Source: a virus (Duplodnaviria; Caudoviricetes). Taken from it: 64,000 nt of DNA. Positions 41,701 to 56,137 of the stretch are shown here, in pieces. The translations under genes and the position numbers were made by a program. Position 1 is the first letter of the stretch. Each line of letters begins with the position of its first letter. Location: IMG/VR virus record IMGVR_UViG_3300022917_000008, positions 32,001 through 96,000 of that record, one strand, 5' to 3'. Below the pieces are notes generated by a model. The model did no database searches. It was not told where the DNA came from and saw nothing but the letters and a program-made list of their open reading frames with translations.

Positions 41701-43009
41701 GGCTAACCACATCTCATTCCACACCTTCAATTGCTCCATGTGTGTACTATTGGCTGGTAATGACTTGTACTTCATATGATTGAGGTTTAATTGGTTAAGT
41801 GGTTGTACTGTTGGGGCTCATGCCTCTGGCATTTCGCCTGTTAGTCAGGTATCTGTTTCAAATGGCCTGTTCCTTGTGGATACTCATCAGCCAGCTCACT
41901 GAGTGATGTACCTAATAGTCTTATTAATTGACTATCTGAACCATTTATCACCTCTGTTATGTTGGACACAATGGCCTCAGCTAGTGTAGTATTAAATCCT
42001 TTTGATACTAGTATTCTGATTAGGTCAATATCTGCTTGTGTGGCCATAGAACTGAGTATTTAGTTATGTGATCAATTAGTATGAGGAATATGATGAAGTA
42101 CGGATGACTTGTAGATGTGATGTGGTGTTGATGCAGATCAAATAAACACTCATAATCAATGAGTTATACATCAGATGACTGTGTTTCACGTGGAACATAG
42201 CACAATAATCATAAGAGCTTGGTATATTTTCTCTCTGAGTTGTGAGATAAGAGAAAAATTACACCAAGAAATAGGGTCAATGACCTATTCTGTGATGTAA
42301 TTAACTAACATTCAGTGATACACTGAGAATACGAGACCAGAATTGGCCTTAGTTGTTAGACTGCTAAGGCAAACAATGCAGTGCCTTGAGGCATTAGCCT
42401 GATCATGTTGGCTGTCTTACTGTCAACCCCTTCGAATTCCAGGCTTGACATGTTCAGGAACTCACCACTCTTGGAAGGTGTGAGAACTGCCTTGGCAATG
42501 ACTGGCTTTCCAACAGGAATGTGAGTTGGAATGTTAGTGATTGCGCTCTCCAAAGGGAAGAATGTACCAAGGTCAGTGACTACAATCTTAGTCTTCCTGC
42601 CATCAGTGGTGCTCTTCCAGCCTCCAATGGATAATACCTGAATCTCAACAGTCTCAGACTTGGAATTCTTGCTTGCTTCGAGGTTCTTAGCAATGAGTTG
42701 CTCTACAAGGCTAAGTGGTTTTGCTGCTGGTGTGTTGTTCTGTTCCATGATAAATGAAATTTAGATGTAAATAAAGTGATTCCAAACACCACATGGGATT
42801 TGATCTCACAGTATAGGGGGTACCCCCAACTCCAGATTCTGCATGGGGTTGGTGATGGGGAAGGTACTTACATCTCTACGTACTATAAACTTGGTACCAT
42901 ACAGGTACTTACACTCGTGTATACCAATTAGAACAAGGGTGGGGGTATCTTATATACAACCAAACATAGGGGGTTATTTATTTGGAAGTACCAACTAGGG
43001 GGTGTATAT

Positions 43010-44077
43010 TTGTGTATAAACAAATCAACAAGTATGAACAACCCAAATGACACATTAGAGTCTGCAGCTATTGACCAGATAAAAGGGGCAAACCAAAAGG
43101 CCTTAGCAGGTAAGGTAGTAGACAGTGAACAGCCAGTAACTCCACAGAAGCCTATGTCAATAGAGCAGTACACACAGGCACTAAAGAAGGAGCATGAGGT
43201 AGCCAGGCTTAGGGCAGGCATAGCAAAGTTCATGTTTGAAGAGAACATGGCTATGGTACAACTCAATCAGCTAAGGGCTGGACAACACATGGTGCAGCAA
43301 GCACAGATGCCTGATAATCAACCAACTGAGGAAATCCCACAAACTGAAGACAATGGAGATCAAGGATAATCAATACAAGGAAGCACCATCAGGTCCTCCT
43401 GTGTTTCTAGCCCCAGCTGATGCTCCTGACAGGGATGCATTAGAGGCTTATAGGCATGGGTTAATGGAGAGGGTATGTAACCTTGATCCTGAGATTGGAC
43501 TGACTATTAGGAAGGACCTAATAGAGTTTGATGAGCAGCAGACAGCAGTATGGAGCTTGGATAGGATTCAGGATCAGCCTACTGATTGTTTGAGGGATTT
43601 GATAGTGAGGGTAGAGAACACAGAAGACATTCTTAAGGAAGACCCAAGACTACTGTAATGGAGCATTTACATGAACCTGAGATAGACCCTCTGGATATAG
43701 ATAGGCCTGGATACTATACACCCAGGATAGAAGAATTATTCTTCAGTTGTGAAGTAGATGTGTATGAAGGAGACAAGTGGATGTCCTATATCATAGATGA
43801 GGAGTTTGATCTGAACAACATATCAAGCTTTAGTCTAAGGATGAAATACTTACAGGCTAAGGATGTGATGGAACTAGGGTTTGCAAGAGTAATGCCTAAC
43901 ACTCCTATGTATCAAAGAGGGTCTTACACTATTACTACATACAGGCTACTTGATCCAACTTATAGCAGAGTGAAGATCAGTCAGAATGGTGTGACAGTGT
44001 TTGAGGGTCATGTGAAGAACAAGTCAGAGTTAAGAAGGATTCTGATACTTAATGAAATAAATTTTGCTGATAACTAA
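43010..44077 (+). other. Three hypothetical genes opening the plus-strand block (43010-43369, 43353-43658, 43658-44077)
   Basis: Overlapping ORFs downstream of TATATTTG near 43005. Confidence 0.7.
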
Positions 44078-44093
44078 GGAAGGAGTATATTTG
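44063..44093 (+). promoter_or_regulatory. Bacteroidota-type promoter for leader 1
   Basis: TTTG (44063) N19 TATATTTG (44086); ATG 3 nt later, so probably leaderless. Similar elements at 44806-44836, 50897-50928, 52742-52773 and 53850-53881. Confidence 0.75.
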
Positions 44094-44096
44094 GGT

Positions 44097-44192
44097 ATGC
44101 AACAACATGCAATAGATATGGCCAATAGAGAGATCAGGGTGAAGAAAAGCTCTGAGGGTATGCTATTTGCTAGACTAGATTACACAAGTTAA
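44097..44192 (+). CDS. Leader peptide 1 (MQQHAIDMANREIRVKKSSEGMLFARLDYTS), putative attenuator
   Basis: Translated by hand; codons 5-17 encode only amino acids of the downstream tRNA block; carries antiterminator 44149-44160. Confidence 0.8.
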   Translation: MQQHAIDMANREIRVKKSSEGMLFARLDYTS

Positions 44193-44215
44193 CAGGTTCC
44201 TAAGCAATAAGACTA

Positions 44216-44255
44216 CCCCCAGAGCAGCCAAAAGCTACCTGGGGGTTTTTGTTTT
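44216..44255 (+). terminator. Intrinsic terminator of attenuator 1
   Basis: CCCCCAG...CTGGGGG then TTTTTGTTTT, immediately before tRNA-Lys. Confidence 0.85.
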
Positions 44256-44257
44256 AT

Positions 44258-44329
44258 CCCCTTGTAGCAAACAGGTGTAGGCAAGAGTCTTTTAAACTCT
44301 GGGGTTTGGTTCAATTCCAAACAGGGGGA
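44258..44329 (+). tRNA. tRNA-Lys (TTT)
   Basis: AGAGT-CTTTTAA-ACTCT; terminal stem CCCCTTG/CAGGGGG. Confidence 0.85.
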
Positions 44330-44332
44330 CAA

Positions 44333-44405
44333 GCTGTTATAACTCAACAGGTAGAGTAATTGATTCTTAATCAATGAGTTCTAGGTTCGAGCCCTAGTAG
44401 CAGCA
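44333..44405 (+). tRNA. tRNA-Lys (CTT)
   Basis: ATTGA-TTCTTAA-TCAAT; GCTGTTA/TAGCAGC. Confidence 0.9.
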
Positions 44406-44406
44406 C

Positions 44407-44580
44407 ATGATAACAATACACACAGGAGCAGGTGGTATGGAGCTATTCCAAGAAATGATGGATAGGGAACTTGGATATGAAAGAGTATATCTTAGGAAGG
44501 TGCCAAGAATACTAAAGTCTAAGTTCAAAAAGAGTCCCTACACAGGGAAGTACTATAAAAGGATAAAGATGCCCCTTTAG
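44407..44580 (+). CDS. Small hypothetical protein (MITIHTGAGGMELFQEMM...)
   Basis: 57-aa ORF whose TAG stop lies inside tRNA-Val. Confidence 0.55.
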   Translation: MITIHTGAGGMELFQEMMDRELGYERVYLRKVPRILKSKFKKSPYTGKYYKRIKMPL

Positions 44581-44642
44581 CTCATTGGTAGAGCTTGTCC
44601 CTTACATGGATAGAGTAGGGAGTTCGATTCTCTCAGGGGGTA
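44571..44642 (+). tRNA. tRNA-Val (TAC)
   Basis: TGTCC-CTTACAT-GGATA; GCCCCTT/AGGGGGT. Confidence 0.85.
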
Positions 44643-44647
44643 CTAAT

Positions 44648-44719
44648 GCACCTGTAGCTCAATGGTAGAGCTGCAAACTTCTAATTTGCAGGCTGGAAGT
44701 TCGACCCTTCCCAGGTGTT
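44648..44719 (+). tRNA. tRNA-Arg (TCT)
   Basis: GCAAA-CTTCTAA-TTTGC; GCACCTG/CAGGTGT. Confidence 0.9.
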
Positions 44720-44725
44720 CTATAA

Positions 44726-44798
44726 GGCCAGTTAGCTCAGTGATAGTAGCAAGAAGCTGTTAACTTCTAGGTCCTAGGTTTGATCCCTAGACTGGCCT
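44726..44798 (+). tRNA. tRNA-Asn (GTT)
   Basis: AGAAG-CTGTTAA-CTTCT; GGCCAGT/ACTGGCC. Confidence 0.9.
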
Positions 44799-44840
44799 CA
44801 GATATTTTGTTCTTTGGAATAAACTTCATACATTTGTATT

Positions 44841-45230
44841 GTGACACAAAGAGAACAAACAATAGCAACCAAGTTCCTATATTTGATAGGAGTAACTAAG
44901 GGGCAGATATTTGCCAAGTGTAAGAACTGGCAGTCAGCTAGAACAACCATAAGGAGACATGCTGTGAAGATATATGAGACCTCAGGGAAGCCAAAAGCAT
45001 GTAACTCTTGTGGATATGATAAGCATTATGAAATATGTCACATAAGGGCTGTGTCTGACTTTCCAGATGAAGCCTTAGTTGAAGAGATAAATAGTATAGA
45101 CAACCTGATGGCACTATGTCCAAACTGTCATTGGGAGTTTGACAATTTAGATTGTGGGGTGGATGTAACGGTAACACAAGACTCTCATAAGGTCTTAATT
45201 GACAGTTCGATTCTGTCCCCCGCAACGTAA
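44841..45230 (+). CDS. HNH endonuclease, 3' end overlapping a tRNA
   Basis: CNSCG...EICHI...NSIDNLMALCPNCHWEFD. Confidence 0.85.
   Translation: MTQREQTIATKFLYLIGVTKGQIFAKCKNWQSARTTIRRHAVKIYETSGKPKACNSCGYDKHYEICHIRAVSDFPDEALVEEINSIDNLMALCPNCHWEFDNLDCGVDVTVTQDSHKVLIDSSILSPAT
45153..45225 (+). tRNA. tRNA with CAT anticodon (Met-like)
   Basis: AGACT-CTCATAA-GGTCT; TGTGGGG/CCCCGCA. Confidence 0.8.
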
Positions 45231-45327
45231 CACAACAAAACTTGGAGCACAAGTATCTACTCATAAAAGGAGTGCTTAGGGCATAGGCTGGTGACTTCAG
45301 TAATAACCCTTCCAGTGAGAGTAGATT

Positions 45328-45399
45328 AGTACTATCGTCTAGTGGCTAGGACATTGCACTTTCACTGCAATAAAGGGGGATCGAAACCCCCTAGTACTA
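45328..45399 (+). tRNA. tRNA-Glu (TTC)
   Basis: TTGCA-CTTTCAC-TGCAA; AGTACTA/TAGTACT. Confidence 0.9.
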
Positions 45400-45406
45400 C
45401 AACCAT

Positions 45407-45483
45407 AGCCTCAGGGGCTGCTAGAAGTGGCCACTCCCCTGTCACGGGAGAATATCAGGAGGGTTTGAATCCCTTTGGGGCTG
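45407..45483 (+). tRNA. tRNA-Asp (GTC)
   Basis: CTCCC-CTGTCAC-GGGAG; AGCCTCA/TGGGGCT. Confidence 0.85.
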
Positions 45484-45484
45484 C

Positions 45485-45616
45485 ATGAAAGAGACATTCA
45501 ACAGGATATGGAATGATCCAGTGGGATCAGATATCATAGCTGGACTGATAGTGTTAGTAATAGCATTTGTACTATCCAGAGTATTCAACATCAAGATTCC
45601 TCATTTTGACCCTTAG
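45485..45616 (+). CDS. Small single-TM protein
   Basis: MKETFNRIWNDPVGSDIIAGLIVLVIAFVLSRVF...; TAG stop inside the next tRNA. Confidence 0.55.
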   Translation: MKETFNRIWNDPVGSDIIAGLIVLVIAFVLSRVFNIKIPHFDP

Positions 45617-45679
45617 CTCAATAGGTAGAGCAGGATACTCATAATATCAAGGTAGTGGGTTCAAATCCCTCAGGGTCAA
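45607..45679 (+). tRNA. tRNA with CAT anticodon (Met, or Ile2 if lysidine-modified)
   Basis: GATA-CTCATAA-TATC; TGACCCT/AGGGTCA. Confidence 0.8.
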
Positions 45680-45691
45680 CAAACTAACATT

Positions 45692-46471
45692 ATGTTCTAC
45701 GTATTGCAAGAGAATGTTTTCAAGGAGTCCCATCATGAACTAATAATGAACTGGATGGAAAAGGCTGGAATAGAGCATGAAGTAATCAAGTTCAGACCTT
45801 TCACAGACACATTAGAAGTAGAGACTAAGAGGAAGGACATATGGTTATGGGGATCAGTTAGTGCATCCAGGATAGCTGAGAAGTACGGATGGTCTCCTGG
45901 TAGTATGTACAATGACAATCATGACCTTGAGGTCTACTCCAAGTACTATGGTGAGAACATGCTAAACCATGATGGTGTGGTAATGAGAGTTACTGATCCA
46001 CTCCCAGATGGTTTAGTCTCATTCTTTGCTAGACCAACTAAGGATACTAAGGCATTCACAGGACAGGTCTTTGATGCTAAGGAATGGAATGAATGGGTAG
46101 ATGATATGACTAGGGCAGGCTTAGTTAGAAGCTTCAGTAAGGATACTAAGGTACTACTAGCGCCTCTCAAGTTGATACAGCAAGAGGTAAGGTGCTGGGT
46201 GATAGGAGGTAAAGTAGTGTCTGCAAGTAGATATAAGATGCATGACAGGATACAATACCAGAACTATGATGATGAGACTTTCTACACTGACTTTGCCCAG
46301 AAGATGGCAGACATTTATTGTCCAGCAGAAGCCTTTGTGATAGATGTATGTTTGGCTGAGGGAGAACTTAAAGTGGTAGAAATCAACTGCATAAACTGTT
46401 CTGGTTTCTATCATATGAACGTAGATAAAGTAATGAGTGCTCTTGAGACTCATTTTGGCAATGTCACATAG
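45692..46471 (+). CDS. ATP-grasp domain protein (DUF4343-like)
   Basis: FARPTKDTKAFTGQV, EVRCWVIGGKVV, FVIDV, VVEINCINCSGFY. Confidence 0.8.
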   Translation: MFYVLQENVFKESHHELIMNWMEKAGIEHEVIKFRPFTDTLEVETKRKDIWLWGSVSASRIAEKYGWSPGSMYNDNHDLEVYSKYYGENMLNHDGVVMRVTDPLPDGLVSFFARPTKDTKAFTGQVFDAKEWNEWVDDMTRAGLVRSFSKDTKVLLAPLKLIQQEVRCWVIGGKVVSASRYKMHDRIQYQNYDDETFYTDFAQKMADIYCPAEAFVIDVCLAEGELKVVEINCINCSGFYHMNVDKVMSALETHFGNVT

Positions 46472-46533
46472 CTCAATGGTTGAGCACCAATCTGATAAGT
46501 TGGGGGATGTAGGTTCAAATCCTACTGTGACAA
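46462..46533 (+). tRNA. tRNA-Ile (GAT)
   Basis: CCAAT-CTGATAA-GTTGG; TGTCACA/TGTGACA. Confidence 0.9.
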
Positions 46534-46536
46534 CTA

Positions 46537-47074
46537 TGAAACAAGAAATACTAGATGCAGGATGGAAGTACTATCAGAGCCCATATCTAGCTGAGAAGTA
46601 CAGAGAGGGGGTATATGAAAAGGGCAACTACTGGATGAAGATAAATGAAGATAGCAGAGACATAACAGTGATTGCACAAGACCCAGTAAAGCTACTAGAT
46701 GAGGGATGGGTATACCCAGAGAATTTTAAACTCTGTGTTCCTTATAAAGGGCCCAAAACACTAGAAGGCTTGGATAAACTACTAGATTTATGATGCTCCA
46801 ATTGAACCCTATACTACCAGTTTTCGTTCCTAGGTTCAACATAGAGGGATTTGCCTTTCTTGTAACTAGGGAATCACAAGAGCATTATACAATCTTCACT
46901 GTGGCCTTAGACAATGGTGAGATATGGGACCTAAGTAACAGGGAGGTAAGGTTTTGTGTTAATCACACTATGGACAGATCATTTATTAACAAGGGGGACA
47001 CAATATTCAAAGATGCTTTTAGACCACATAACAGGGCTGTTCCTGATGATAAAACACAGGAGAAGGGTAGTTAG
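46537..47074 (+). other. Two small hypothetical genes (46537-46793, 46790-47074)
   Basis: MKQEILDAGW... and MMLQLNPILPVF... joined by an ATGA overlap. Confidence 0.6.
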
Positions 47075-47176
47075 GTTCAAGGTACCCAGGGCTAAGGTAA
47101 TGCAGGTATACAGGTTCTCTAGGCCCAATGCCAAGGCTTTGTACTTAGGGCTGGGCAGGTTCATCTTTATCAACTA

Positions 47177-47246
47177 GGGCTAGATGCCAATGGCAGGTCA
47201 ACTCCCTTGCAAGGAGATTGTTTGGGTTCGACTCCCACTATGTCCA
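47177..47246 (+). tRNA. tRNA-Ala (TGC), irregular acceptor stem
   Basis: CTCC-CTTGCAA-GGAG; G3-U70 present; TGGG-TTCGACT-CCCA. Confidence 0.75.
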
Positions 47247-47302
47247 CTAATTTAATCCCAAGTATGGAGTTAATTTTGTATCTTTATTTGTAAAGATATA
47301 CT

Positions 47303-48673
47303 ATGGCTACTGCAACAATAAATTGGGTACCCACCAATGGAAGTGGGTATGAAATATGGTATGGTAAGCTAACTATGGTTGGCACTACTTTCTTACCTCC
47401 TTCTACAGGCTGGATACAAGCTCCTGGTTCACCTTTTGATTCTACTCTGGGTACAGCTACTATCAATGGACTGGATGACAACACTCAGTACAGGATAGTA
47501 ACTAGGGCTGACTGTACATCTGCTGACAGTCCATGGATTGATAAGAGTGTGGACAAGATAGTCTGCCCTACTTTCACTGTAGTAGCTAATCCAGTAGGTG
47601 GAACAGATGTGGGAGCTTCAATCACAGCAAACATTAGCCTGTCTAATATTGTTGAATTTGGATTGATAGTCTCCTCAGTTACTCTCACTGTCAAGAAGAC
47701 AAGTGATTCTTCAGTAGCAGCAACTAAGGTATTCTCTGCTCCATATACAGACACTACTCTCACTAACACATTCACATCTTTACTTACTAATACCAGTTAC
47801 ACAGTATATCTGACTTTGCATGATAGTGTGAATTCAGTGGATGTTACATGCACAAATCATGCTGTAACAACACTTGCATTCATACCACCTCCTACATGTA
47901 CAGCTCCAACATTCTCTATTAGCAATATCACACAATCTTCTGCCTTAGTTACAATAACATCAACTCTTCTAACTGGGGACACATATGATATTTCTATCAA
48001 TGGTGGATCATCCTATGTCTATACAGGACTAACTGGGGCAACATTCAGTCTTACAGGACTAACCCAGGGCACTAATTATGTAGTTGTGGTAAGGAGGAAC
48101 TGTGCAGCTGGTAATCAAGGCATTAGCACAAGTCAGACATTCACTACTGCAAGTAACATCATACCAGCAACTATACAAGCTAATAGGAGTAATGGACAGA
48201 TCAATACTGGTGGTGGACCAAGGTGGCAGTATTCAATGGTAATAACATTCCAACAACCTACACCATTCCCCATTACTATTTACTTTGGTCAGTCTGTGAT
48301 TGTAGGACAAGTAGGTGGAGGACAGTGTAGGTACAGTCAGGGATATGATATGTATACACCTCCAACTACAGGACCAATAGCTTGTTGTTTTGGTGGATGT
48401 ACATATCCAGCTCCAAACTCTAACAAGCCTTGGAGGATAGATGTACCTGCAGGTGTGGTCACATATACAGTACCATTTGACACTGCATTCAGAGATGGGG
48501 TCACTCATGCTGACTTGCAACAAGTGTGGTGTGTACAGGAGCCTGTGGGCACAGGTGCAGTGGATTACATTAGTGATTTGTGGATGAAGATTACTGCTCC
48601 TTCAGGATATTTCTGTAACTTCACTCCTGTACCTGGAGCACATACATCAGGGATAACAATACACAATCTATAA
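47303..48673 (+). CDS. Thr-rich protein with fibronectin type III-like repeats (possible virion decoration/adhesion)
   Basis: GLDDNTQY, SLLTNTSY and GLTQGTNY FN3 signatures. Confidence 0.75.
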   Translation: MATATINWVPTNGSGYEIWYGKLTMVGTTFLPPSTGWIQAPGSPFDSTLGTATINGLDDNTQYRIVTRADCTSADSPWIDKSVDKIVCPTFTVVANPVGGTDVGASITANISLSNIVEFGLIVSSVTLTVKKTSDSSVAATKVFSAPYTDTTLTNTFTSLLTNTSYTVYLTLHDSVNSVDVTCTNHAVTTLAFIPPPTCTAPTFSISNITQSSALVTITSTLLTGDTYDISINGGSSYVYTGLTGATFSLTGLTQGTNYVVVVRRNCAAGNQGISTSQTFTTASNIIPATIQANRSNGQINTGGGPRWQYSMVITFQQPTPFPITIYFGQSVIVGQVGGGQCRYSQGYDMYTPPTTGPIACCFGGCTYPAPNSNKPWRIDVPAGVVTYTVPFDTAFRDGVTHADLQQVWCVQEPVGTGAVDYISDLWMKITAPSGYFCNFTPVPGAHTSGITIHNL

Positions 48674-48674
48674 T

Positions 48675-49652
48675 ATGAGTTTGATTAAGGATTTCTGCAA
48701 ATGGTTCAATGGGGAAGAGGATGTTGACAATACCCTCTATGTGATTACAGTGGTATTCAATCCTTTCAATTTCAAGTCCAGGTACAAGTTGTACAGGGAG
48801 TTCAGGGAGTACATGTCTACACAGAAGAATGTGAGGCTTCTAACAGTAGAAGTAGCACTAGGGGATAGGCCATTTAGAGTAACTAGGGCCAATAACTCTT
48901 GGAATGTGCAACTAAGGACTGAGGAAGAGATGTGGCACAAGGAGGCAGCTATTAATAGAGGGTTCAAACATCTATTACACTTGGTACCTAATGCCAAGTA
49001 TGTTGGATGGTTTGATTCTGATGTTAGGTTTGCTAATCCAGACTGGGTTAAGGAGACTATTCATGCCCTACACAGGTACAAGATAGTCCAGCCCTTCTCA
49101 CAAGTTGTATACATGGATGCAAAGTATGAAGAGTTGTGGCATACACCAAGTGCACTGAAACACTACCATAACAAATTAGGATACTATCAATATCCCCAAG
49201 TACCTCCTGGGTATCTATGTGGAGGACATCCAGGGTTAGCTTGGGCTGCAAGAGTAGATACTTTCAGGAAACTAGGAGGACTAATGGACTTCTGTATAGC
49301 AGGATCAGCAGACACACACATGCTGAATGCACTACTGGGAGATGTCAACATATTCTACAAACCTGGTATGACACAGGTGTTCAGGACTGAGCTTAAGAAG
49401 TGGCAGGACAAAGCAGATGAGCATGTTAAACAAAATATAGGCTACGTCAATGGAATCTGCTATCATTACTGGCATGGGAAGAGTGAGAAAAGGGGATATG
49501 AGAAGAGGTGGGACATAATGAACTTTCATCAATTTGACCCTTCTACTGACATTGTGAGGGGTCATAATGGACTATGGAAGTGGGCTGGAAACAAGCCCCA
49601 GTTAGTCTATGATCTAAGGAAATCAATGTCAGAAAGGAATGAAGATGAGTAA
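48675..49652 (+). CDS. Glycosyltransferase-like protein (GT-A)
   Basis: WHKEAAIN.G, WFDSDV (DxD), GHPGLAWA, HYWHG. Confidence 0.7.
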   Translation: MSLIKDFCKWFNGEEDVDNTLYVITVVFNPFNFKSRYKLYREFREYMSTQKNVRLLTVEVALGDRPFRVTRANNSWNVQLRTEEEMWHKEAAINRGFKHLLHLVPNAKYVGWFDSDVRFANPDWVKETIHALHRYKIVQPFSQVVYMDAKYEELWHTPSALKHYHNKLGYYQYPQVPPGYLCGGHPGLAWAARVDTFRKLGGLMDFCIAGSADTHMLNALLGDVNIFYKPGMTQVFRTELKKWQDKADEHVKQNIGYVNGICYHYWHGKSEKRGYEKRWDIMNFHQFDPSTDIVRGHNGLWKWAGNKPQLVYDLRKSMSERNEDE

Positions 49653-50184
49653 TACACTGATAACACAGGACAGGTTAACAACTTTCTCCTTGCTAAGGCC
49701 CCTAGTTCCTAAAGAAGGATTAGTAGCTGAGGTAGGAGTATATAAGGGAGGATCACTTAAAGTACTAGCTAAACTGTTTGATGACACAGCAGTACTAGGA
49801 TTTGATACATTTGAGGGGTTACCTAAGGAGCAATGGATTGAGAGTGAGATACATGAGCCTGGTGACTTTCATGATACTACAATGAAGGATGTGCAGGAAT
49901 TCTTGCATGATTGTCCAAACGTGGTACTGATCAAGGGACTATTCCCAACATCAGCTAAGGGAATGGATGATTACAAGTTCAGGCTAGTACATTTGGATAC
50001 AGACTTTTATCTGGGTACAAAGTTATCACTAGAGTGGTTTTGGCCAAGGATGGAAAGTGGAGGTATTATAGTGTTTGATGACTATAAGTGGCCCAATTGT
50101 CCAGGTGTAGAACAAGTACTGAAGGAGTTTGGAGAACCTGTGCACCAAGCAGCAGATTATCAGGCATACATAAAGAAACCATGA
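49639..50184 (+). CDS. TylF/MycF-like SAM-dependent O-methyltransferase
   Basis: AEVGVYKGGS, GFDTFEGLP, KGLF, VHLDTD.Y, GGIIVFDDY. Confidence 0.85.
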   Translation: MKMSNTLITQDRLTTFSLLRPLVPKEGLVAEVGVYKGGSLKVLAKLFDDTAVLGFDTFEGLPKEQWIESEIHEPGDFHDTTMKDVQEFLHDCPNVVLIKGLFPTSAKGMDDYKFRLVHLDTDFYLGTKLSLEWFWPRMESGGIIVFDDYKWPNCPGVEQVLKEFGEPVHQAADYQAYIKKP

Positions 50185-50912
50185 CATACATACAGAACAA
50201 GGACGGACTTATAGGAGACTTCCTGGGATCAGTACCTGCAATGCAGGAGCTAGGTAGAAGGGACAAGCTAGTGGTACAGATTCATCCAGAGGCATTGAAG
50301 TTAGTACCTCTTATATACAACCCAGATGGGATTGTATTTACTGAGATAGCAACTGGGCAAGTGTCACATACAATCTACTCAGCTACTGCATTCCAGATTG
50401 CAACAGCAAAGAATCTGTACATGTCACAAGCATTCTTTGAGCAGGTGGGATTGGAGATTCCCCTAGTTGCTCCTAAAGCTGATTTAAGGCTCATAGAGGT
50501 CCATACTCCAACTTATGACTACATCATATCACCTTTTGCTAGAAGCCTACCAAGCAGCCAGAAATTGCCTAAGAGTGAATGGAAGCAGTTGGTGGATAGC
50601 ATGCCTAACAAGAAGTTCTGTGTAATTGGTACAACAGTGCATGATGATCCTGAGTTCATAGTAGGACCTAATGTGGAGACTAGATTTGATATGGACTTCA
50701 ACTATGTAGGTAGCCTGCTAAGGAATGCAACTAAGGGACTCATCAGTGTTGTGACAGGCACTTCTCATTTAGCATTTCACCTAGGAGTGAAGAACTGGAT
50801 ACTTAATAATCAGGACTTTGCATGGGGTACTAATCCAGATGGAGTATCAATCAGGGATCATATTCCAGCTCTATTTGGAGAAAAGATTAGAGAATATTTG
50901 GAAAATAGCTAG
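50181..50912 (+). CDS. GT9-like (heptosyltransferase-like) glycosyltransferase
   Basis: IGDFLGSVPAMQEL, ISPFA, ISVVTGTSHLA; start moved to ATG 50181 (ATGA overlap). Confidence 0.7.
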   Translation: MTYIQNKDGLIGDFLGSVPAMQELGRRDKLVVQIHPEALKLVPLIYNPDGIVFTEIATGQVSHTIYSATAFQIATAKNLYMSQAFFEQVGLEIPLVAPKADLRLIEVHTPTYDYIISPFARSLPSSQKLPKSEWKQLVDSMPNKKFCVIGTTVHDDPEFIVGPNVETRFDMDFNYVGSLLRNATKGLISVVTGTSHLAFHLGVKNWILNNQDFAWGTNPDGVSIRDHIPALFGEKIREYLENS

Positions 50913-50936
50913 GACTGCACTATATTTGTATTACAT

Positions 50937-51115
50937 GCGGGGGATACTTAGAGAGCCCTGTTCTCTTATAACCCTTTAATACAGCCATAAAAGCTGTCCC
51001 CCGTTCCATGGAGAGGTGCTTCTAAGCTTTAGGTTGGTGTGATCCCAACTCTCTCTGCAAATGGGTAGAAATAGCATAGAGCTGTCAGTTGGGTGTAAGC
51101 CCCACCTACCCACCA
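50937..51115 (+). ncRNA. Three tandem truncated tRNA-like units
   Basis: 50937-51008 GCGGGGG/CCCCCGT-TCCA; 51010-51059 GGAGAG/CTCTCT with a GGTTGG/CCAACT hairpin; 51062-51115 TGGGTAG/CTACCCA-CCA. Confidence 0.6.
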
Positions 51116-51116
51116 T

Positions 51117-51189
51117 GCCTTCCTAGCTCAATTGATAGAGCGTCCATCTCTAAAATGGAAAGATGTGGGTTTGAGTCCCACGGATCGCA
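51117..51189 (+). tRNA. Amber suppressor-type tRNA (anticodon CTA)
   Basis: TCCAT-CTCTAAA-ATGGA; normal D arm and T stem; acceptor GCCTTCC/GGATCGC has two mismatches. Confidence 0.8.
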
Positions 51190-51204
51190 CTTAAACTAAA
51201 CACA

Positions 51205-51567
51205 ATGGCTTAGATTACATCAACATCCAGATTGATAACTATAGTAAGGAGAGACCTTAGTCATGGTTATCAGACAGCACAGACAGGTCATGCAATAGCA
51301 GAATGGGCTTATAACAATCCCAGGACCTTTAGAAGGTGGAGAAAAGAAAGTGGGTACTTAATATGTCTTTCAGTAAGAAACCTAGCAGAGCTAGAGGCAT
51401 TCAACAGAAAGTTATATGACAACAAGATAAAGTACACAGCATTTTATGAACCTGACATTGGAGAGTTTACAGCAATAGCAATAACTCCTTCAACTAAGGC
51501 AGACCAGTTAACTAAGCATCTACAGCTAGCCAATGTAAAGGCTGGCACTAAGGACAAACACAAATGA
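51205..51567 (+). CDS. Pth2-like peptidyl-tRNA hydrolase with in-frame TAG at codon 3
   Basis: IVRRDLSHG...AQTGHA and FYEPDIGEFTAIAI motifs; ATG-GCT-TAG at 51205 is in frame with the ORF called from TTG 51232. Confidence 0.75.
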
Positions 51568-51635
51568 AGCAATTATCCTCATATTATCTCCTAAGTTCCC
51601 TGTTGAATAGACAGGCTGAGATAGTATTGAGTTAA
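51564..51635 (+). CDS. Leader peptide 2 (MKQLSSYYLLSSLLNRQAEIVLS), putative attenuator
   Basis: Codons 4-14 are all Leu, Ser or Tyr; ATGA overlap with the Pth2 stop. Confidence 0.85.
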   Translation: MKQLSSYYLLSSLLNRQAEIVLS

Positions 51636-51660
51636 GTCATTCTTCGGAGACCCTTATACT

Positions 51661-51696
51661 AGCCCTCAGCCTAAAAACTGGGGGCTTTTTGTTTTT
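51661..51696 (+). terminator. Intrinsic terminator of attenuator 2
   Basis: AGCCCTCAG-CCTAAAAA-CTGGGGGCT then TTTTGTTTTT. Confidence 0.85.
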
Positions 51697-51698
51697 AT

Positions 51699-51774
51699 GG
51701 CAGTGTGGGCAAAATGGTAAAGTCGCTTCACTTAGGATGAAGAGGTTCTGAGAGTTCGAGTCTCTCCACTGTCA
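51699..51774 (+). tRNA. tRNA-Leu (TAG), short variable region
   Basis: CTTCA-CTTAGGA-TGAAG; GGCAGTG/CACTGTC. Confidence 0.85.
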
Positions 51775-51777
51775 CAT

Positions 51778-51857
51778 ACCTCCATGGTGAAATTGGTAGA
51801 CGCGACAGACTTAAAATCTGTTCCTTCGGGGTGCCAGTTCAAATCTGGCTGGGGGTA
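51778..51857 (+). tRNA. tRNA-Leu (TAA)
   Basis: ACAGA-CTTAAAA-TCTGT; variable arm CCTTCGGG. Confidence 0.9.
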
Positions 51858-51859
51858 CT

Positions 51860-52258
51860 ATGGATAATAAAACCTACTATAGCTCCATAGCGGAGCTAAA
51901 AGTAATGGCTGATCTAACAGCTAAGCACTATCATATATTCAATCAAGTATCTGGTAAGGCACCATTTGACTTGGTTGCATACAGGGATGGAGAGCTAAGG
52001 AGAGTCAGTGTCAAGAGTTGCAACAAAGACCCTAGGAAGGACGGGGGATTTGTGATAGAAGTTGGCAGGGTAAGAGCCAATAAAACAGAGAATAAGATAT
52101 ACAAGTTTGATCAGTCTGAATGTGATCTGCTGGCCATCTACATAGTCAAAGAAGATAGAATAGTCTATGTGGAGTCAACAGTAGCGCATGATAAAAGGCA
52201 GATCATCATACAAGGAAGGTCCCAGTTGACAGAGGTACATGATCTTGAAAATCACTAG
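51860..52258 (+). CDS. PD-(D/E)XK homing-endonuclease-like protein
   Basis: AELKV...PFDLV......RVSVKS and CDLLAIY; 3' end overlaps tRNA-Ser. Confidence 0.75.
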   Translation: MDNKTYYSSIAELKVMADLTAKHYHIFNQVSGKAPFDLVAYRDGELRRVSVKSCNKDPRKDGGFVIEVGRVRANKTENKIYKFDQSECDLLAIYIVKEDRIVYVESTVAHDKRQIIIQGRSQLTEVHDLENH

Positions 52259-52299
52259 GTCCCTAAAAAGACGTGGGGGTTGAACTCCCCCACCTTCCT
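52214..52299 (+). tRNA. tRNA-Ser (TGA), degenerate D arm
   Basis: TGAT-CTTGAAA-ATCA; long variable arm; GGAAGGT/ACCTTCC. Confidence 0.7.
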
Positions 52300-52307
52300 C
52301 AAACTAA

Positions 52308-52392
52308 GGAGAGTTGGCTGAGAGGCTTAAAGCACCACATTGCTAACGTGGGGGCTGTAATAGGTCCACTAGTTCGAATCTAGTACTCTCCT
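52308..52392 (+). tRNA. tRNA-Ser (GCT)
   Basis: CCAC-ATTGCTAAC-GTGG; GGAGAGT/ACTCTCC. Confidence 0.9.
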
Positions 52393-52398
52393 CTTAAT

Positions 52399-52482
52399 GC
52401 CTACCATGGTAGATTGGATACTACCTGTGGACTGTAAATCCACTGCCCTTGGGCTTATTCAGTTCGATTCTGAAGGGAGGCA
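52399..52482 (+). tRNA. tRNA-Tyr (GTA)
   Basis: GTGGA-CTGTAAA-TCCAC; variable arm GCCC-TT-GGGC. Confidence 0.85.
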
Positions 52483-52504
52483 CATTTTGTTGTATATTTG
52501 TATA

Positions 52505-52765
52505 ATGGAATACAACATCACACCTCAGGCCCTAGTTGATAGGGGATTCAAGTACCATGCACCAGGCATAAGTGGAGCAGACATGTGGCAGGGAATGCCA
52601 TGGTGGATTCATAAGGAGAAGGATATAGGTCTATGCCTTAGAGGGACTACTTCTACAGCAAAGCCTAGAGGACTAAGGTTAGCTGGACATTTCAATACAG
52701 AGGTGAGAACAATAAAGCAGTTAGAAGTTTTGATGGAAATATTTGGTTTGAATCCAAATAGTTAG
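52505..52765 (+). CDS. Hypothetical protein
   Basis: ATG 52505 (MEYNITPQ) follows TATATTTG; the track start lies inside tRNA-Tyr. Confidence 0.65.
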   Translation: MEYNITPQALVDRGFKYHAPGISGADMWQGMPWWIHKEKDIGLCLRGTTSTAKPRGLRLAGHFNTEVRTIKQLEVLMEIFGLNPNS

Positions 52766-52776
52766 TATATTTGATT

Positions 52777-52848
52777 ATGAAACAGACTTGGCAACATACC
52801 TTTACGACACAAACTCCACTAAAAGGAGAAGGGTATCTGTTGTCATAA
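52777..52848 (+). CDS. Leader peptide 3 (MKQTWQHTFTTQTPLKGEGYLLS), putative attenuator
   Basis: Codons 3-14 are all Gln, Thr, Trp, His, Phe or Pro; ATG 3 nt after TATATTTG. Confidence 0.85.
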   Translation: MKQTWQHTFTTQTPLKGEGYLLS

Positions 52849-52883
52849 CATTCCAAGAAAGATTGTAATAATGAAACACTGAT

Positions 52884-52913
52884 ACCCTCCATTCCTGGAG
52901 GGTTTTTTATTTT
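52884..52913 (+). terminator. Intrinsic terminator of attenuator 3
   Basis: ACCCTCCA-TTCC-TGGAGGGT then TTTTTATTTT. Confidence 0.85.
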
Positions 52914-52984
52914 GGGTGGTTGACCAATGGTAGGTCCCTACATTTGGGATGTAGAATTTGCAGGTTCGAGTCCTGTTCACCCAA
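52913..52984 (+). tRNA. tRNA-Pro (TGG)
   Basis: CTACA-TTTGGGA-TGTAG; TGGGTGG/TCACCCA. Confidence 0.9.
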
Positions 52985-52988
52985 CTAT

Positions 52989-53061
52989 GGTGCACAAGCT
53001 AATCTGGTGAAAGCACTAGACTGAAAATCTAGGGAGCTTGGATCAAAACCAAGGTGTACCG
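52989..53061 (+). tRNA. tRNA-Phe (GAA)
   Basis: CTAGA-CTGAAAA-TCTAG; GGTGCAC/GTGTACC. Confidence 0.9.
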
Positions 53062-53062
53062 C

Positions 53063-53494
53063 ATGAAACAATCAAATAGAAAGGATGCTAGAAGGGTCAT
53101 AGACTGTGAAAACTGTGGTAACCCAACAAAGAATGATAGATTCTGTAGTCTATCTTGCTCAGCAGAACATGTATCAAAGGAGCAGTATAGAAAGTTCTTG
53201 AGCAGCCCTGAGGACTTCCAGGGTGAGGAGTACTCTCCTAAGTCCTTTAAGAAGTTTATACTGAAGGAACAGGATTGCAAGTGTAGCATCTGTAGTATAG
53301 ACAATATATGGAATGGTAAGGAACTGGTGTTTGTACTAGATCACATAGATGGAAATCCAGGCAACAATACTAGGGACAACCTTAGGCTAGTATGTCCCAA
53401 TTGTGATAGCCAGTTGGACACATTTAAAAGTGGAAATAAGGGAAGTGGTAGGTACTACAGAACACAAAGAAGATTAGAGGGCAAATCCTCATAA
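53063..53494 (+). CDS. HNH endonuclease
   Basis: CENCG, FCSLSC, LDHIDGNPGNNTRDNLRLVCPNCDSQ. Confidence 0.9.
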   Translation: MKQSNRKDARRVIDCENCGNPTKNDRFCSLSCSAEHVSKEQYRKFLSSPEDFQGEEYSPKSFKKFILKEQDCKCSICSIDNIWNGKELVFVLDHIDGNPGNNTRDNLRLVCPNCDSQLDTFKSGNKGSGRYYRTQRRLEGKSS

Positions 53495-53567
53495 GGCCGG
53501 TTAGTTTATATGACTAAAATACGTCTCTTGTAAAGATGAGTACTGAGTTTGATGCTCAGACTGGCCT
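53495..53567 (+). tRNA. tRNA-Thr (TGT)
   Basis: CGTCT-CTTGTAA-AGATG; GGCCGGT/ACTGGCC. Confidence 0.85.
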
Positions 53568-53573
53568 CTTAAT

Positions 53574-53644
53574 AGCCCTTTAGCACATTGGTAGTGCGTG
53601 GAGCTTTGGACTCCATGAAGTTAGTTCGATCCTAGCAGGGGCTT
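53574..53644 (+). tRNA. tRNA-Gln (TTG)
   Basis: TGGAG-CTTTGGA-CTCCA; AGCCCTT/AGGGGCT. Confidence 0.85.
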
Positions 53645-53651
53645 CTTATAT

Positions 53652-53726
53652 GGTGCTTGTAGCATAAAGGTAATGCACTGCTCTGTGAAAGCAGTGAAGA
53701 GGGATCAATACCCTCCTTGTACCCCA
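53652..53726 (+). tRNA. tRNA-His (GTG)
   Basis: CTGCT-CTGTGAA-AGCAG; G-1/C73 and encoded CCA. Confidence 0.85.
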
Positions 53727-53729
53727 AAC

Positions 53730-53798
53730 ACGTGCTAGGCTATGGTAGCCACCCAGTCTCCAAAACTGAAGGAAGTAGTTCGATTCTACTAGTGCGTG
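53730..53798 (+). tRNA. tRNA-Trp (CCA)
   Basis: CAGT-CTCCAAA-ACTG; ACGTGCT/AGTGCGT. Confidence 0.85.
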
Positions 53799-53883
53799 CA
53801 ATAGAATAGTTTGATAAGCAAACCTATAAAGTTTGCATGTCAAACTATTTTTGTTTATATGAACTAAGACCCATATATTTGTA

Positions 53884-54246
53884 TTGAAGACCAACAATAT
53901 GAGTGTAGACTTAATCAAGGACAAGATAACAGTAAGTGATAAGACTGAGGCACTCAGGCTGCACCTACTTATTAAGTCCTTCCAGACAGGTCTAAACCTC
54001 TCAGAGTCAGACATTAACAGTCTGGTTGAGCTTAGCATAGTAGGGTATAACCCAGAGTTCTTCAAGGCTTGTGTAGACAAGGGCTATTACAAGAGTGAGC
54101 AGACTGTAAGGAATGCCATAGCCAAGATGACTAACATGGGGATACTGTACTACAGGAAGAGAGGGGAAAGGAAGATCAATGAGGACTTCCTACCTAAAAC
54201 AAGTTCAGACAAGGTAATGTTTCAATACTTAGTGGGTAACATATGA
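53884..54246 (+). CDS. Possible winged-helix DNA-binding protein
   Basis: SEQTVRNAIAKMTNMGIL helix-wing pattern. Confidence 0.55.
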   Translation: MKTNNMSVDLIKDKITVSDKTEALRLHLLIKSFQTGLNLSESDINSLVELSIVGYNPEFFKACVDKGYYKSEQTVRNAIAKMTNMGILYYRKRGERKINEDFLPKTSSDKVMFQYLVGNI

Positions 54247-54581
54247 TAGTAAGGGCATCTGAAATATATACTGTAACAGCACTAAGGCATGGATTGGACC
54301 AAGAACTTGTTTCCTCAGTTGGTGAGACAGTGTTCAAGTCCTTGATGGAAAAGATGGTAGTACCTCATGACCTAGCTTATGAGTTGGATCATGTGGGGAC
54401 ATTTGCTATTAGACACAAGAAGTTCTTGGGTAAGCATGCAACCCTTTTGAGTAATAACCCTGACCATCCCTTTGTGTCAACATGGAGGCATGTTATAGAC
54501 ATGGTACAGGACTTCAGAAACACTAAGGCACAATTTCAATCTAGGAGGGCAGAATATGACAGAGCCAAAAAACAAGGCTAA
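54243..54581 (+). CDS. HU/IHF-like DNA-binding protein
   Basis: Helix-helix start followed by YELDHVGTFAIR. Confidence 0.55.
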   Translation: MIVRASEIYTVTALRHGLDQELVSSVGETVFKSLMEKMVVPHDLAYELDHVGTFAIRHKKFLGKHATLLSNNPDHPFVSTWRHVIDMVQDFRNTKAQFQSRRAEYDRAKKQG

Positions 54582-55181: not shown

Positions 55182-55192
55182 AACAAAATACT

Positions 55193-55492: not shown

Positions 55493-55522
55493 TTATCATG
55501 TTGGGGGCCAGTCTAGTCAGGA

Positions 55523-55984
55523 ATGGAAAAGTATTGTCCTAAATGCAAGCAGAAGAAAGACACATCCTTCTTCAGACCTAACAAATCTAGGAAGGATGGT
55601 CTTCAACCTTGCTGCATAGATTGTGATAAGGAATATCAAAGGCAATGGTACCAGAGCAACAAGGAAAAGGTAAAAGCTAAGTCCTTAGTAAGCAATAAGG
55701 TAAATAGAGAAAGAGTACAAGAGATTCTACTAAGGGAACTAGAAGGTAAGAAATGTGAACACTGTGGGGAAGGTGATATACTAGTACTAGAGTTTGACCA
55801 CCTAAGAGACAAGCAGTTCACCATAGGCAATACACAGTGGGAGAGCGAAGACAAAATAATAGAGGAGGTAGGAAAGTGCCAAGTACTATGTGCCAACTGC
55901 CATAGAAGGAAAACTCATGAAGATATGAACACATACAAATGGAGGTATAGCCAAGGGGTAAGGCAGGAGTCTGCAAAACTCTGA
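55523..55984 (+). CDS. HNH endonuclease, 3' end overlapping tRNA-Cys
   Basis: CPKC, CIDC, CEHCG..LEFDHL..KCQVLCANCHRRKT. Confidence 0.85.
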   Translation: MEKYCPKCKQKKDTSFFRPNKSRKDGLQPCCIDCDKEYQRQWYQSNKEKVKAKSLVSNKVNRERVQEILLRELEGKKCEHCGEGDILVLEFDHLRDKQFTIGNTQWESEDKIIEEVGKCQVLCANCHRRKTHEDMNTYKWRYSQGVRQESAKL

Positions 55985-56014
55985 GCGAAGGTTCAATTCC
56001 TTCTACCTCTTCCA
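55941..56014 (+). tRNA. tRNA-Cys (GCA)
   Basis: GGAGT-CTGCAAA-ACTCT; U73 and encoded CCA. Confidence 0.9.
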
Positions 56015-56047
56015 GAAATCCAACAAACCTTAAATAAACCAACACTA

Positions 56048-56120
56048 GCATCAGTAGTATAAAGGCTGATTATACTGCACTTCCAATGCAGGGATGAGGT
56101 TTCGATTACCTCCTGGTGCT
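56048..56120 (+). tRNA. tRNA-Gly (TCC)
   Basis: CTGCA-CTTCCAA-TGCAG; GCATCAG/CTGGTGC; U73. Confidence 0.9.
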
Positions 56121-56137
56121 CAAAAAGAAACCAACTA

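Follow-up and report, generated by a model that had tools for sequence, protein, structure and literature searches.

Why would a phage place a short open reading frame and a predicted transcription terminator in front of each of its tRNA operons? Control of bacterial and phage tRNA genes is usually ascribed to the promoter and to processing, and why and when phages use their tRNAs is debated, with codon-usage matching, host shut-off and escape from anticodon nucleases as the proposed answers. The uncultured crAss-like phage considered here has a 156-kb genome (155,657 bp), of which we analyzed a window of 64,000 nucleotides that holds three tRNA blocks, each behind its own leader ORF (all features below lie on the plus strand, in window coordinates). 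We put the probability at roughly 0.7 that these leaders are ribosome-mediated attenuators giving each tRNA operon negative feedback on decoding capacity. Given leader codons that are also the codons of the block, and a transcription stop that appears switchable, the phage probably makes a set of tRNAs only when ribosomes decode the corresponding codons slowly.

Leader 1 (class K; 44097..44192, 31 codons, ATG at 44097) precedes tRNA block 1 (44258..47246), leader 2 (class L; 51564..51635, 23 codons) precedes block 2 (51699..52483), and leader 3 (class P; 52777..52848, 23 codons from its ATG or 25 from a TTG at 52771) precedes block 3 (52913..53799). An earlier sequence-only reading had placed three ORFs of 23-31 codons upstream of the tRNA blocks, and this is borne out. 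The tRNA rosters given in that reading were recovered with ARAGORN and Rfam, except that one alanine and one serine tRNA are less secure. Block 1, in which HNH, ATP-grasp and other ORFs are interspersed, starts at 44258 with the first of two tRNA-Lys genes and runs, in order, Lys(UUU), Lys(CUU), Val, Arg(UCU), Asn, CAU, Glu, Asp, CAU and Ile(GAU); its last member, Ala(TGC) at 47178-47246, is weak, with a score of 29.8 bits that equals the Rfam cut-off. Block 2 starts with tRNA-Leu at 51699 and comprises Leu(UAG), Leu(UAA), Ser(UGA), Ser(GCU) and Tyr(GUA), with a PD-(D/E)XK endonuclease ORF within it; the second serine tRNA, Ser(TGA) at about 52214-52299, is a by-eye reading for which Rfam gives a sub-threshold match only. 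Block 3 starts with tRNA-Pro at 52913, followed by Phe(GAA) (52989-53061, 51.5 bits), Thr, Gln, His and Trp, and it too has an ORF within, of the HNH type.

The central regions of the leader peptides mirror these rosters. The 13-residue core of leader 1 (44109-44147) is composed of A, I, D, M, N, R, E, V and K only, and 13 of its 13 codons are readable by block 1 tRNAs. Likewise, the 11 residues of the leader 2 core (51573-51605) are all L, S or Y, encoded with five different Leu and three different Ser codons, and the 12 residues of the leader 3 core (52783-52818) are all Q, T, W, H, F or P, with all four Thr codons used. Every core contains all and only the amino acids of its downstream block (9, 3 and 6 for leaders 1, 2 and 3), and together the three cores cover 18 amino acids with zero overlap, as the sequence-only reading had it. 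When the whole 155,657-bp genome was scanned in six frames, runs of at least 11 residues from the L set and of at least 12 from the P set were unique, as was a K-set run of at least 13 residues holding all nine members. Per-position probabilities of the three runs are 3e-6, 2e-8 and 5e-9. The match between leader and roster exceeds chance by a wide margin and has no second instance in the genome. Short ORFs are common, with 175 of at least 20 codons overlapping 43000-55000, and one might therefore regard the leaders as chance ORFs beside ordinary terminators of upstream genes, or as small proteins with a function of their own. However, the runs are found nowhere else in the genome and lie at the right three places, and in relatives the order of residues is not conserved, whereas composition tracks the tRNA roster even to the codon family. 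This explanation is scarcely credible, being already contradicted by the genome-wide uniqueness, the codon-level match and the co-variation.

Each leader is followed by a predicted intrinsic terminator. Terminator 1 (44215..44257) has a hairpin at 44215-44246 of -18.2 kcal/mol and a T tract adjoining tRNA-Lys; terminator 2 (51661..51698) has a hairpin at 51661-51686 of -15.0 kcal/mol plus a T tract, and terminator 3 (52884..52912) a hairpin at 52884-52903 of -12.9 kcal/mol plus a T tract. At all three sites the T-rich tract ends 0-2 nt before the first tRNA, in agreement with the GC hairpin and U-tract described earlier at that distance from each tRNA block. Also confirmed for all three leaders is a segment just 3′ of the core, here called region 2, with complementarity to the terminator 5′ arm. 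In leader 1, region 2 (44148..44161) can pair either with the core (1:2) or with the terminator 5′ arm (2:3, the antiterminator), the latter through 11 of 12 possible pairs, and its duplex is predicted at -19.6 kcal/mol compared with -10.5 +/- 2.7 in shuffled sequences. For leader 3, region 2 (52824..52838) is the 5′ strand of the antiterminator, with a duplex of -14.2 kcal/mol versus -6.8 +/- 2.0 in shuffles. Region 2 of leader 2 (51613..51626) has as its partner either the core or 51655-51672; a simple duplex test against shuffles gave no significant result for leader 2, because the arm had been truncated in it.

Folded without a mask, the three window leaders adopt the 1:2 hairpin together with the terminator. 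When a ribosome footprint was masked on early or middle core codons, all three shifted to the antiterminator, in keeping with the sequence-only reading. The same potential is evident in a wider set of leaders. Complementarity between region 2 and the terminator arm exceeds that of dinucleotide shuffles in 21 of 26 leaders (mean z -3.4), and in the K class the antiterminator helix shows 87.7% pairing, with changes in both strands, a value matched by 0 of 500 shuffles. The 1:2 hairpin appears in the minimum-energy folds of all three window leaders and exceeds shuffles in only 11 of 28 clade leaders. Stop codons lie 19-37 nt 5′ of the terminator in nearly all leaders, and region 2 ends no more than 15 nt from the stop codon in 20 of 28, which is within the footprint of a terminating ribosome. 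It is conceivable that the short ORFs are translated and relevant while their output is tRNA precursor processing or stability (for example, RNase P or RNase E access to the hairpin beside the first tRNA) or Rho action, rather than terminator read-through. A gap of just 7-13 nt separates the hairpin from the 5′ end of the first tRNA, and in relatives the leader persists where homing endonuclease genes lie between these two elements; both observations would suit such an output. However, the hairpins are canonical GC stems with U tracts, and a terminator/antiterminator switch requires the very complementarity that is conserved between region 2 and the 5′ arm. We regard this alternative as improbable.

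Putative promoters indicate where the leader transcripts would begin. We used a Bacteroidota sigma-A pattern (TTTG at -33 and TAnnTTTG at -7, with the boxes 19-20 nt apart), for which there are 5 strict matches in the window versus 0.10 expected, and 9 matches in the genome as a whole, 6 of them clustered at window positions 42981-53881. The predicted leader 1 promoter (44063..44093; a TTTG box, 19 nt, and a TAnnTTTG box) ends 3 nt 5′ of the ATG, as does that of leader 3 (52742..52773). Pattern matches of this kind accompany 18 of 28 clade leaders, and in 9 leaders the TTTG/TAnnTTTG site ends 3-4 nt before the ATG.

If the leaders operate as attenuators, a host-type promoter would yield an RNA starting at or near the ATG of a 23-31 codon ORF whose core offers one to five codons per tRNA of the downstream block. 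A fast ribosome would reach the stop codon, leaving region 2 either covered or re-paired with the core, and the terminator hairpin would form and halt RNA polymerase at the U tract just 5′ of the first tRNA. With a scarce tRNA, the ribosome would instead stall on a core codon and region 2 would be free to pair with the terminator 5′ arm, allowing polymerase to read through into the tRNA genes. New tRNA should then speed translation of the leader and turn the operon off again, so that decoding capacity would be under separate negative feedback for each block. Structurally, the trp/his-type attenuator proposed earlier is borne out computationally, by the anatomy, the alternative folds, the complementarity beyond shuffles, the codon match, and the co-variation in relatives, with a second lineage in addition; on the functional side, we infer translation of the ORFs, termination, and a read-through response to tRNA supply. 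Elsewhere, ORFs of this leader-like kind with terminators did not stand up to mutational tests, one example being S. coelicolor ilvB as cited in PMC1262725.

Three features weaken a picture of one leader for one block. First, leader 2 lacks its own promoter and is instead joined to an upstream ORF (51232..51567) resembling PTH2 peptidyl-tRNA hydrolases (Pfam PF01981, E 4.5e-10), whose stop codon overlaps the leader ATG (ATGA), a junction shared by relatives L004 and L100. The transcript carrying both ORFs probably starts at a promoter-like pattern match 5′ of a suppressor tRNA (50897..50928). Second, another promoter-like site, 44806-44836, sits within block 1 and could supply the later tRNAs of that block, bypassing the attenuator. 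Third, the last three or four core codons (Val, Lys, Lys in leader 1) may escape sensing in a simple model because a ribosome stalled there would cover region 2.

A further comparison covered fourteen related phage genomes whose TerL proteins are 33-70% identical. The same three leader classes are kept across this set, and the order of the peptide varies while its codon content tracks the tRNA roster. In a codon-level match of 27 leaders from 12 phages, a leader's own block received the top score every time, and over a fixed window of codons 4-15 the own block could read 261 of 312 codons versus 29 of 312 for other blocks. That leader codon content co-varies with the downstream tRNAs was upheld for three features, which represent at least four separate changes on the TerL tree: Cys in the P leader and tRNA-Cys in the P block are present or absent together (12/12), the same holds for Gly in the K leader and tRNA-Gly in the K block (10/10), and CGN codons track tRNA-Arg(ACG/GCG) (10/12). 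The correspondence extends to Arg isoacceptors, with Arg encoded by AGA or AGG (9/9) in K-class cores, where the block carries tRNA-Arg(UCU), and by CGT or CGC (5/5, plus L101 and L103) in P-class cores, where the block carries tRNA-Arg(ACG or GCG). There are also mismatches: L084 and L094 carry tRNA-Arg(ACG) with a leader that has no CGN codon, L090 is missing three tRNAs yet retains the leader of L089, and L098 has K-type tRNAs without a leader. The same design is present in an unrelated phage of 635 kb that belongs to another lineage: Arg(ACG) and four Ser tRNAs follow a Ser-rich leader containing one CGC codon, and four Lys tRNAs follow a Lys-rich mini-ORF.

The elements resemble trpL, hisL and pheL and the multivalent enterobacterial attenuators thrL (Thr and Ile) and the ilvGMEDA leader (Ile, Leu and Val) in having a promoter-proximal short ORF rich in regulatory codons, predicted alternative 2:3 and 3:4 RNA structures along with a putative 1:2 hairpin, a predicted intrinsic terminator before the first regulated gene, and a leader RNA of about 135-160 nt. 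As in trpL, hisL and thrL, the short ORF lies near the predicted transcript 5′ end (leaders 1 and 3, with leader 2 instead coupled to its upstream ORF), the codons are tied to what the operon supplies, and sequence and folds predict an intrinsic terminator with a mutually exclusive antiterminator. However, the first downstream genes are tRNA genes rather than genes for amino-acid biosynthesis or an aminoacyl-tRNA synthetase, and we therefore class the elements as an attenuator variant, not a plain member. Moreover, the phage leaders differ in sampling between 3 and 10 amino acids, mostly with one or two occurrences apiece and with the whole roster of the block covered, in an output that would feed directly back on the sensed quantity, and in belonging to a phage with a probable Bacteroidota host and apparently leaderless mRNA. 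Comparable too are the attenuators of aminoacyl-tRNA synthetases, such as the gamma-proteobacterial pheST leader and those predicted for trpS and leuS in Streptomyces (PMC1262725), in which classical attenuation controls a component of the translation apparatus through its cognate codon; these sense one amino acid per leader and control a protein gene, whereas the phage leaders precede sets of the decoding RNAs themselves. In mycobacteria, operon expression is attenuated by leaderless polycysteine short ORFs (bioRxiv 10.1101/834739), which share a short sensor ORF at the transcript 5′ end with codon-specific ribosome stalling as the signal, but involve a single amino acid, another downstream mechanism and a biosynthetic target.

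T-box riboswitches also exert terminator/antiterminator control by reading tRNA status via a codon-like specifier, and the leader codons are cognate to the downstream tRNAs, so that a row of codons might bind tRNA anticodons directly, like a multi-specifier T-box and independently of the ribosome. T-boxes, however, bind uncharged tRNA without a ribosome through a conserved stem I and T-box motifs, whereas the phage codons form a predicted translated frame. A cmscan of 43900-56400 at E up to 1 returned tRNAs and chance hits only, with nothing matching the T-box model (RF00230, which comprises stem I, specifier loop and T-box sequence) and no further Rfam cis-regulator. Also, the codons lie in a single frame between ATG and stop, the spacing from stop to terminator is conserved, and the position of the predicted promoters would place the ATG at the RNA 5′ end. 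We consider direct binding very improbable.

What the attenuators are for is a separate matter. The sequence-only reading took them as an inducible answer to tRNA cleavage or starvation, and negative feedback on decoding capacity fits the same anatomy more simply. Amino-acid starvation is an unlikely target, since a shortage of amino acid is not remedied by more tRNA. It is known that phage tRNAs stand in for host tRNAs after cleavage, and the same attenuators could serve counter-defence, being off in a healthy cell and switching a block on only when an anticodon nuclease of the host (PrrC, RloC, colicin-like enzymes, AriB) or another tRNA-depleting defence removes the matching host tRNA. Such a sensor would read the decoding of just those codons for which the block can compensate, resolving isoacceptors in the case of Arg, and separate blocks would permit a targeted response. 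However, feedback or timing of tRNA supply accounts for the anatomy without any nuclease, and all 18 amino acids would be sensed, not just those that nucleases usually target (Lys, Arg, Glu, Tyr, His, Asn, Asp). We consider a role of this kind unlikely. A bolder possibility, less likely than not, is that large phages possess a modular controller of tRNA supply, in which the leader of each tRNA operon samples its own codons down to the isoacceptor family and a block is induced only on slow decoding of those codons, which would let the phage answer tRNA-cleaving defences block by block. This might then be the first case of ribosome-mediated attenuation of tRNA genes; our literature search found no paper describing leader-peptide attenuation of tRNA genes.

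If negative feedback through these leaders is confirmed, phages would gauge translation capacity and adjust tRNA supply on demand, and the debate over phage tRNAs would become testable, as the leaders would name the codons that are limiting from the phage's point of view. They would also offer small, programmable parts for sensing several codons simultaneously. A rule equating leader content with tRNA roster could aid the annotation of divergent tRNAs and operon boundaries in metagenomic phages.

Block 3 ends at a strong hairpin with a T tract (53805..53849), which is followed by a further predicted promoter (53850-53881). Beyond it, outside the three blocks, lie tRNA-Cys and tRNA-Gly as a separate pair (55941..56121) with neither leader nor terminator upstream, and Cys and Gly are the two amino acids missing from all three leader cores.

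Three tRNA blocks of this phage are each preceded by a short open reading frame (ORF), the leader, whose central stretch, or core, reads as a roster of the tRNAs that follow. Leader ORF 1 (44097-44192, +; core AIDMANREIRVKK) stands before Lys, Lys, Val, Arg, Asn, CAU, Glu, Asp, CAU, Ile and Ala tRNAs (44258-47246, +), leader ORF 2 (51564-51635, +; core LSSYYLLSSLL) before Leu, Leu, Ser, Ser and Tyr tRNAs (51699-52483, +), and leader ORF 3 (52777-52848, +; core QTWQHTFTTQTP) before Pro, Phe, Thr, Gln, His and Trp tRNAs (52913-53799, +). A GC hairpin of -12.9 to -18.2 kcal/mol lies 22-35 nt past each leader stop codon, and the T tract after it extends to the first tRNA of the block, which is the arrangement of ORF, hairpin, U tract and tRNA block that the sequence-only reading had described. 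Its further claim about the cores agrees with the tRNA calls: each contains all of the amino acids of its own downstream block and no others, and no residue is common to any two of the three. Cys and Gly are the two amino acids missing from all cores, and their tRNAs form a pair (55941-56121, +) without a leader. Leaders were sought before this pair, before the suppressor tRNA(CUA) at 51117 (+) and before the minus-strand tRNAs at 35699, 15688 and 12002, and none was seen.

In a six-frame search of the entire genome, which covered 254,536 stop-to-stop residues, a Leu/Ser/Tyr run of at least 11 residues is found once, as leader 2, and a Pro-set run of at least 12 is likewise found once, as leader 3. 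Lys-set runs of at least 13 number nine, and only one of these, leader 1, includes all nine members of the set. A chance origin is rejected by this uniqueness together with per-position probabilities of 3e-6, 2e-8 and 5e-9 for the leader runs.

The whole virus record is 155,657 bp, with the window representing its bases 32001-96000, and every tRNA gene of the genome falls inside the window. ARAGORN reports 22 tRNA genes and one tmRNA gene, and Rfam contributes two further tRNAs, Phe(GAA) and a weakly scoring Ala(UGC); a Ser(UGA) gene at about 52214-52299 was read by eye. By its capsid, portal and terminase genes this is a distant member of the crAss-like phages, whose large terminase subunit (TerL) is at most 30% identical to that of any GenBank phage, and a search of GenBank phages for near-identical DNA found none. 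The runs carrying this stretch are DNA only, from leaf-litter and soil metagenomes, with no RNA run listed.

When folded free of ribosomes, the core (region 1) of all three leaders pairs with the segment immediately behind it (region 2) in a hairpin, which is followed by the predicted terminator (regions 3:4), with z-scores of -1.6, -3.1 and -2.7 for leaders 1, 2 and 3. A ribosome was mimicked by masking 30 nt around the A site. With the mask on the first or a middle core codon of leaders 1 and 3, region 2, the predicted complement of the terminator 5' arm, pairs with that arm instead. Leader 2 adopts this antiterminator (2:3) with the first codon masked, and its two folds are nearly equal in energy with a middle codon masked. 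The terminator forms again when the A site is at the last core codon or the stop codon. This mask-dependent switch follows the same logic as the trp leader, as had been proposed from the sequence. Leader 1 closes its core with Val, Lys and Lys codons that are so near region 2 that a ribosome stalling on them would keep the antiterminator from forming. A T-box or other known RNA family was rejected by an Rfam covariance-model scan.

The tRNA arrays of relatives were reached via TerL homologues in IMG/VR records and in Logan and ENA contigs; the comparison does not extend to the arrays of L003, L005, L099 and L104 or to the leader of class K in L100. Three leader classes, K, L and P, are common to fourteen genomes with TerL 33-70% identical, in which every class carries a hairpin and U tract before a Lys, Leu or Pro block, respectively. 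The order of residues varies among phages, and their composition tracks the roster. By a log-odds score corrected for set size, a leader's own block ranks top in all 27 leader-block pairs, and in most of these the best segment lacks no member of the set. Over codons 4-15, a stretch fixed independently of the sets, the leader's own block has tRNAs able to read 261 of 312 codons, and the same genome's other blocks have them for only 29 of 312. A few relatives show mismatches between leader and block.

The match extends to codon families, most sharply for Arg. K-class cores use AGA or AGG in nine of nine cases, with tRNA-Arg(UCU) in their own block, and P-class cores use CGT or CGC in five of five, plus L101 and L103, with tRNA-Arg(ACG or GCG) in theirs. 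The window phage, whose codons include 64 CGN vs 1713 AGR, lacks tRNA-Arg(ACG or GCG), and its P leader lacks Arg. Similarly, tRNA-Cys resides inside the Pro block in eight genomes, all with Cys in the leader core, and elsewhere in four (the window phage, L100, L101 and L103), none of which has a core that includes Cys. Cys and Arg(CGN) are found in all four combinations. For Cys, leader and block agree in 12 of 12 genomes; for Arg(CGN) they do so in 10 of 12, the exceptions being L084 and L094, where the leader has no CGN codon. In nine genomes the Lys block includes tRNA-Gly and the K core includes Gly; in the window phage tRNA-Gly is apart from the Lys block and the K core has no Gly. On the TerL tree, Cys requires at least two changes, and Arg and Gly at least one each.

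Elements of the switch are also conserved. Complementarity between region 2 and the terminator arm exceeds that of dinucleotide shuffles in 21 of 26 leaders (mean z -3.4). Pairing of the antiterminator helix in the K-class alignment stands at 87.7%, a value reached by none of 500 shuffles, and sliding the partner columns lowers it to at most 56%. Two pairs of this helix have changed on both sides; loop-length indels disturb the alignment of K-class terminators. In 20 of 28 leaders, region 2 ends no more than 15 nt from the stop codon, within the stretch that a terminating ribosome would cover. Pairing 1:2 is less widespread, being significant in only 11 of 28.

A qualitative comparison is provided by LR745206.1, an unannotated 635-kb uncultured phage reached through a chance tRNA match, which is a lineage independent of the crAss-like clade with the same design. 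Its tRNA-leader region (7757-9583 of L105, the section LR745206.1 334624-350690) includes a 24-codon ORF, whose core has eight Ser codons and a single CGC codon for Arg, before Arg(ACG) and four Ser tRNAs; an antiterminator-capable segment, then a hairpin and U tract, follow this ORF. A nine-codon ORF (start and stop counted) with four Lys codons precedes four Lys tRNAs, and an ORF with His, Phe, Trp and Lys codons precedes His, Phe, His, Phe, Trp and Trp tRNAs.

The most economical reading, to which we give a probability of about 0.7, is that these leaders are classical attenuators whose regulated genes would be the tRNAs themselves. A ribosome slowed at any of the early or middle core codons would open the operon, and the newly made tRNAs would close it again. 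Anticodon nucleases, suggested by the sequence-only reading, are a possible trigger, and starvation is unlikely to be the purpose. Leader-like ORFs elsewhere have failed mutational tests, as cited in one report (PMC1262725). The multivalent attenuators of thrL and ilvGMEDA are assembled from the same parts as the phage leaders. Among aminoacyl-tRNA synthetase genes, pheST is controlled by attenuation. This type of control, also predicted for trpS and leuS (PMC1262725), is the nearest precedent in the translation apparatus. Unlike either group, however, the phage leaders have a roster-like composition with isoacceptor resolution, and their target would be tRNA genes, with direct feedback. The sequence-only reading knew of no description of this arrangement for phage tRNA arrays, and our search of the full-text literature likewise found none of attenuators before tRNA genes.

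A Bacteroidota-type promoter pattern, a TTTG box followed after 19-20 nt by TATATTTG, occurs five times in the window vs 0.1 expected; genome-wide there are nine, six of them clustered at window 42981-53881. The sites of leaders 1 and 3 end 3 nt upstream of the ATG, and their messages would thus be leaderless or nearly so. A further promoter-like site (44806-44836) could feed the later tRNAs of block 1, bypassing attenuator 1. No such site was found for leader 2, which is probably dependent on an upstream transcript: a promoter-like site at 50897 is followed by the suppressor tRNA, a PTH2-like peptidyl-tRNA hydrolase gene (51232-51567, +) and leader 2, whose ATG overlaps the stop codon of the PTH2-like gene. 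This ATGA overlap with the Leu/Ser/Tyr leader recurs in L004 (about 3100-3235) and L100 (about 4580-4680), and because of it ribosomes reaching the end of PTH2 may go on to translate the sensor ORF.

Several other features were observed. For tRNAs with G34, leaders prefer the U-ending wobble codon over the C-ending cognate (104 vs 16 over codons 4-16 of all leaders; 9 vs 1 in the window leaders), and U-ending codons make up 58% in the long ORFs of the window phage; this preference may tune the sensor to the weakest-read codon. A distant clade (L085, reverse-complement 1658-1747; L089, L091, L092, L094, L095) has an extra small ORF between promoter and Pro-class leader, with a Gly/Cys-alternating motif followed by Lys/Pro-rich residues, which is fused to the leader in L092 and absent from the window phage. 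The suppressor tRNA(CUA) (region 50897-51190, +) lies about 190 nt downstream of a promoter-like site of its own and has neither a terminator nor a matching leader; in L091 a promoter box lies 12 nt upstream of the suppressor tRNA. The portal and terminase genes of the window phage are open in the standard code despite this TAG suppressor. A tRNA-like gene (12002-12121, -; Rfam 42.7 bits) with an insertion of about 45 nt has a 12-bp hairpin and short T tract in front, and a short ORF upstream shows no roster match. The tmRNA gene (23911-24315, -; Rfam 75.6 bits; ARAGORN tag peptide ETEQYLLIK) co-occurs with the full tRNA set and the PTH2-like hydrolase. Block 1 includes, between a CAU tRNA and tRNA-Ile, an ATP-grasp protein of the R2K clade (45692-46471, +; PF14243, E 2e-21), for which a search of IMG/VR found no close relatives. 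HNH and PD-(D/E)XK homing endonuclease genes are dispersed in the tRNA arrays (window 44841-45152, 51860-52258, 53054-53494 and 55523-55939), and in several relatives such a gene is inserted between hairpin and first tRNA, exactly so at the attenuators of L084, L085 and L089.
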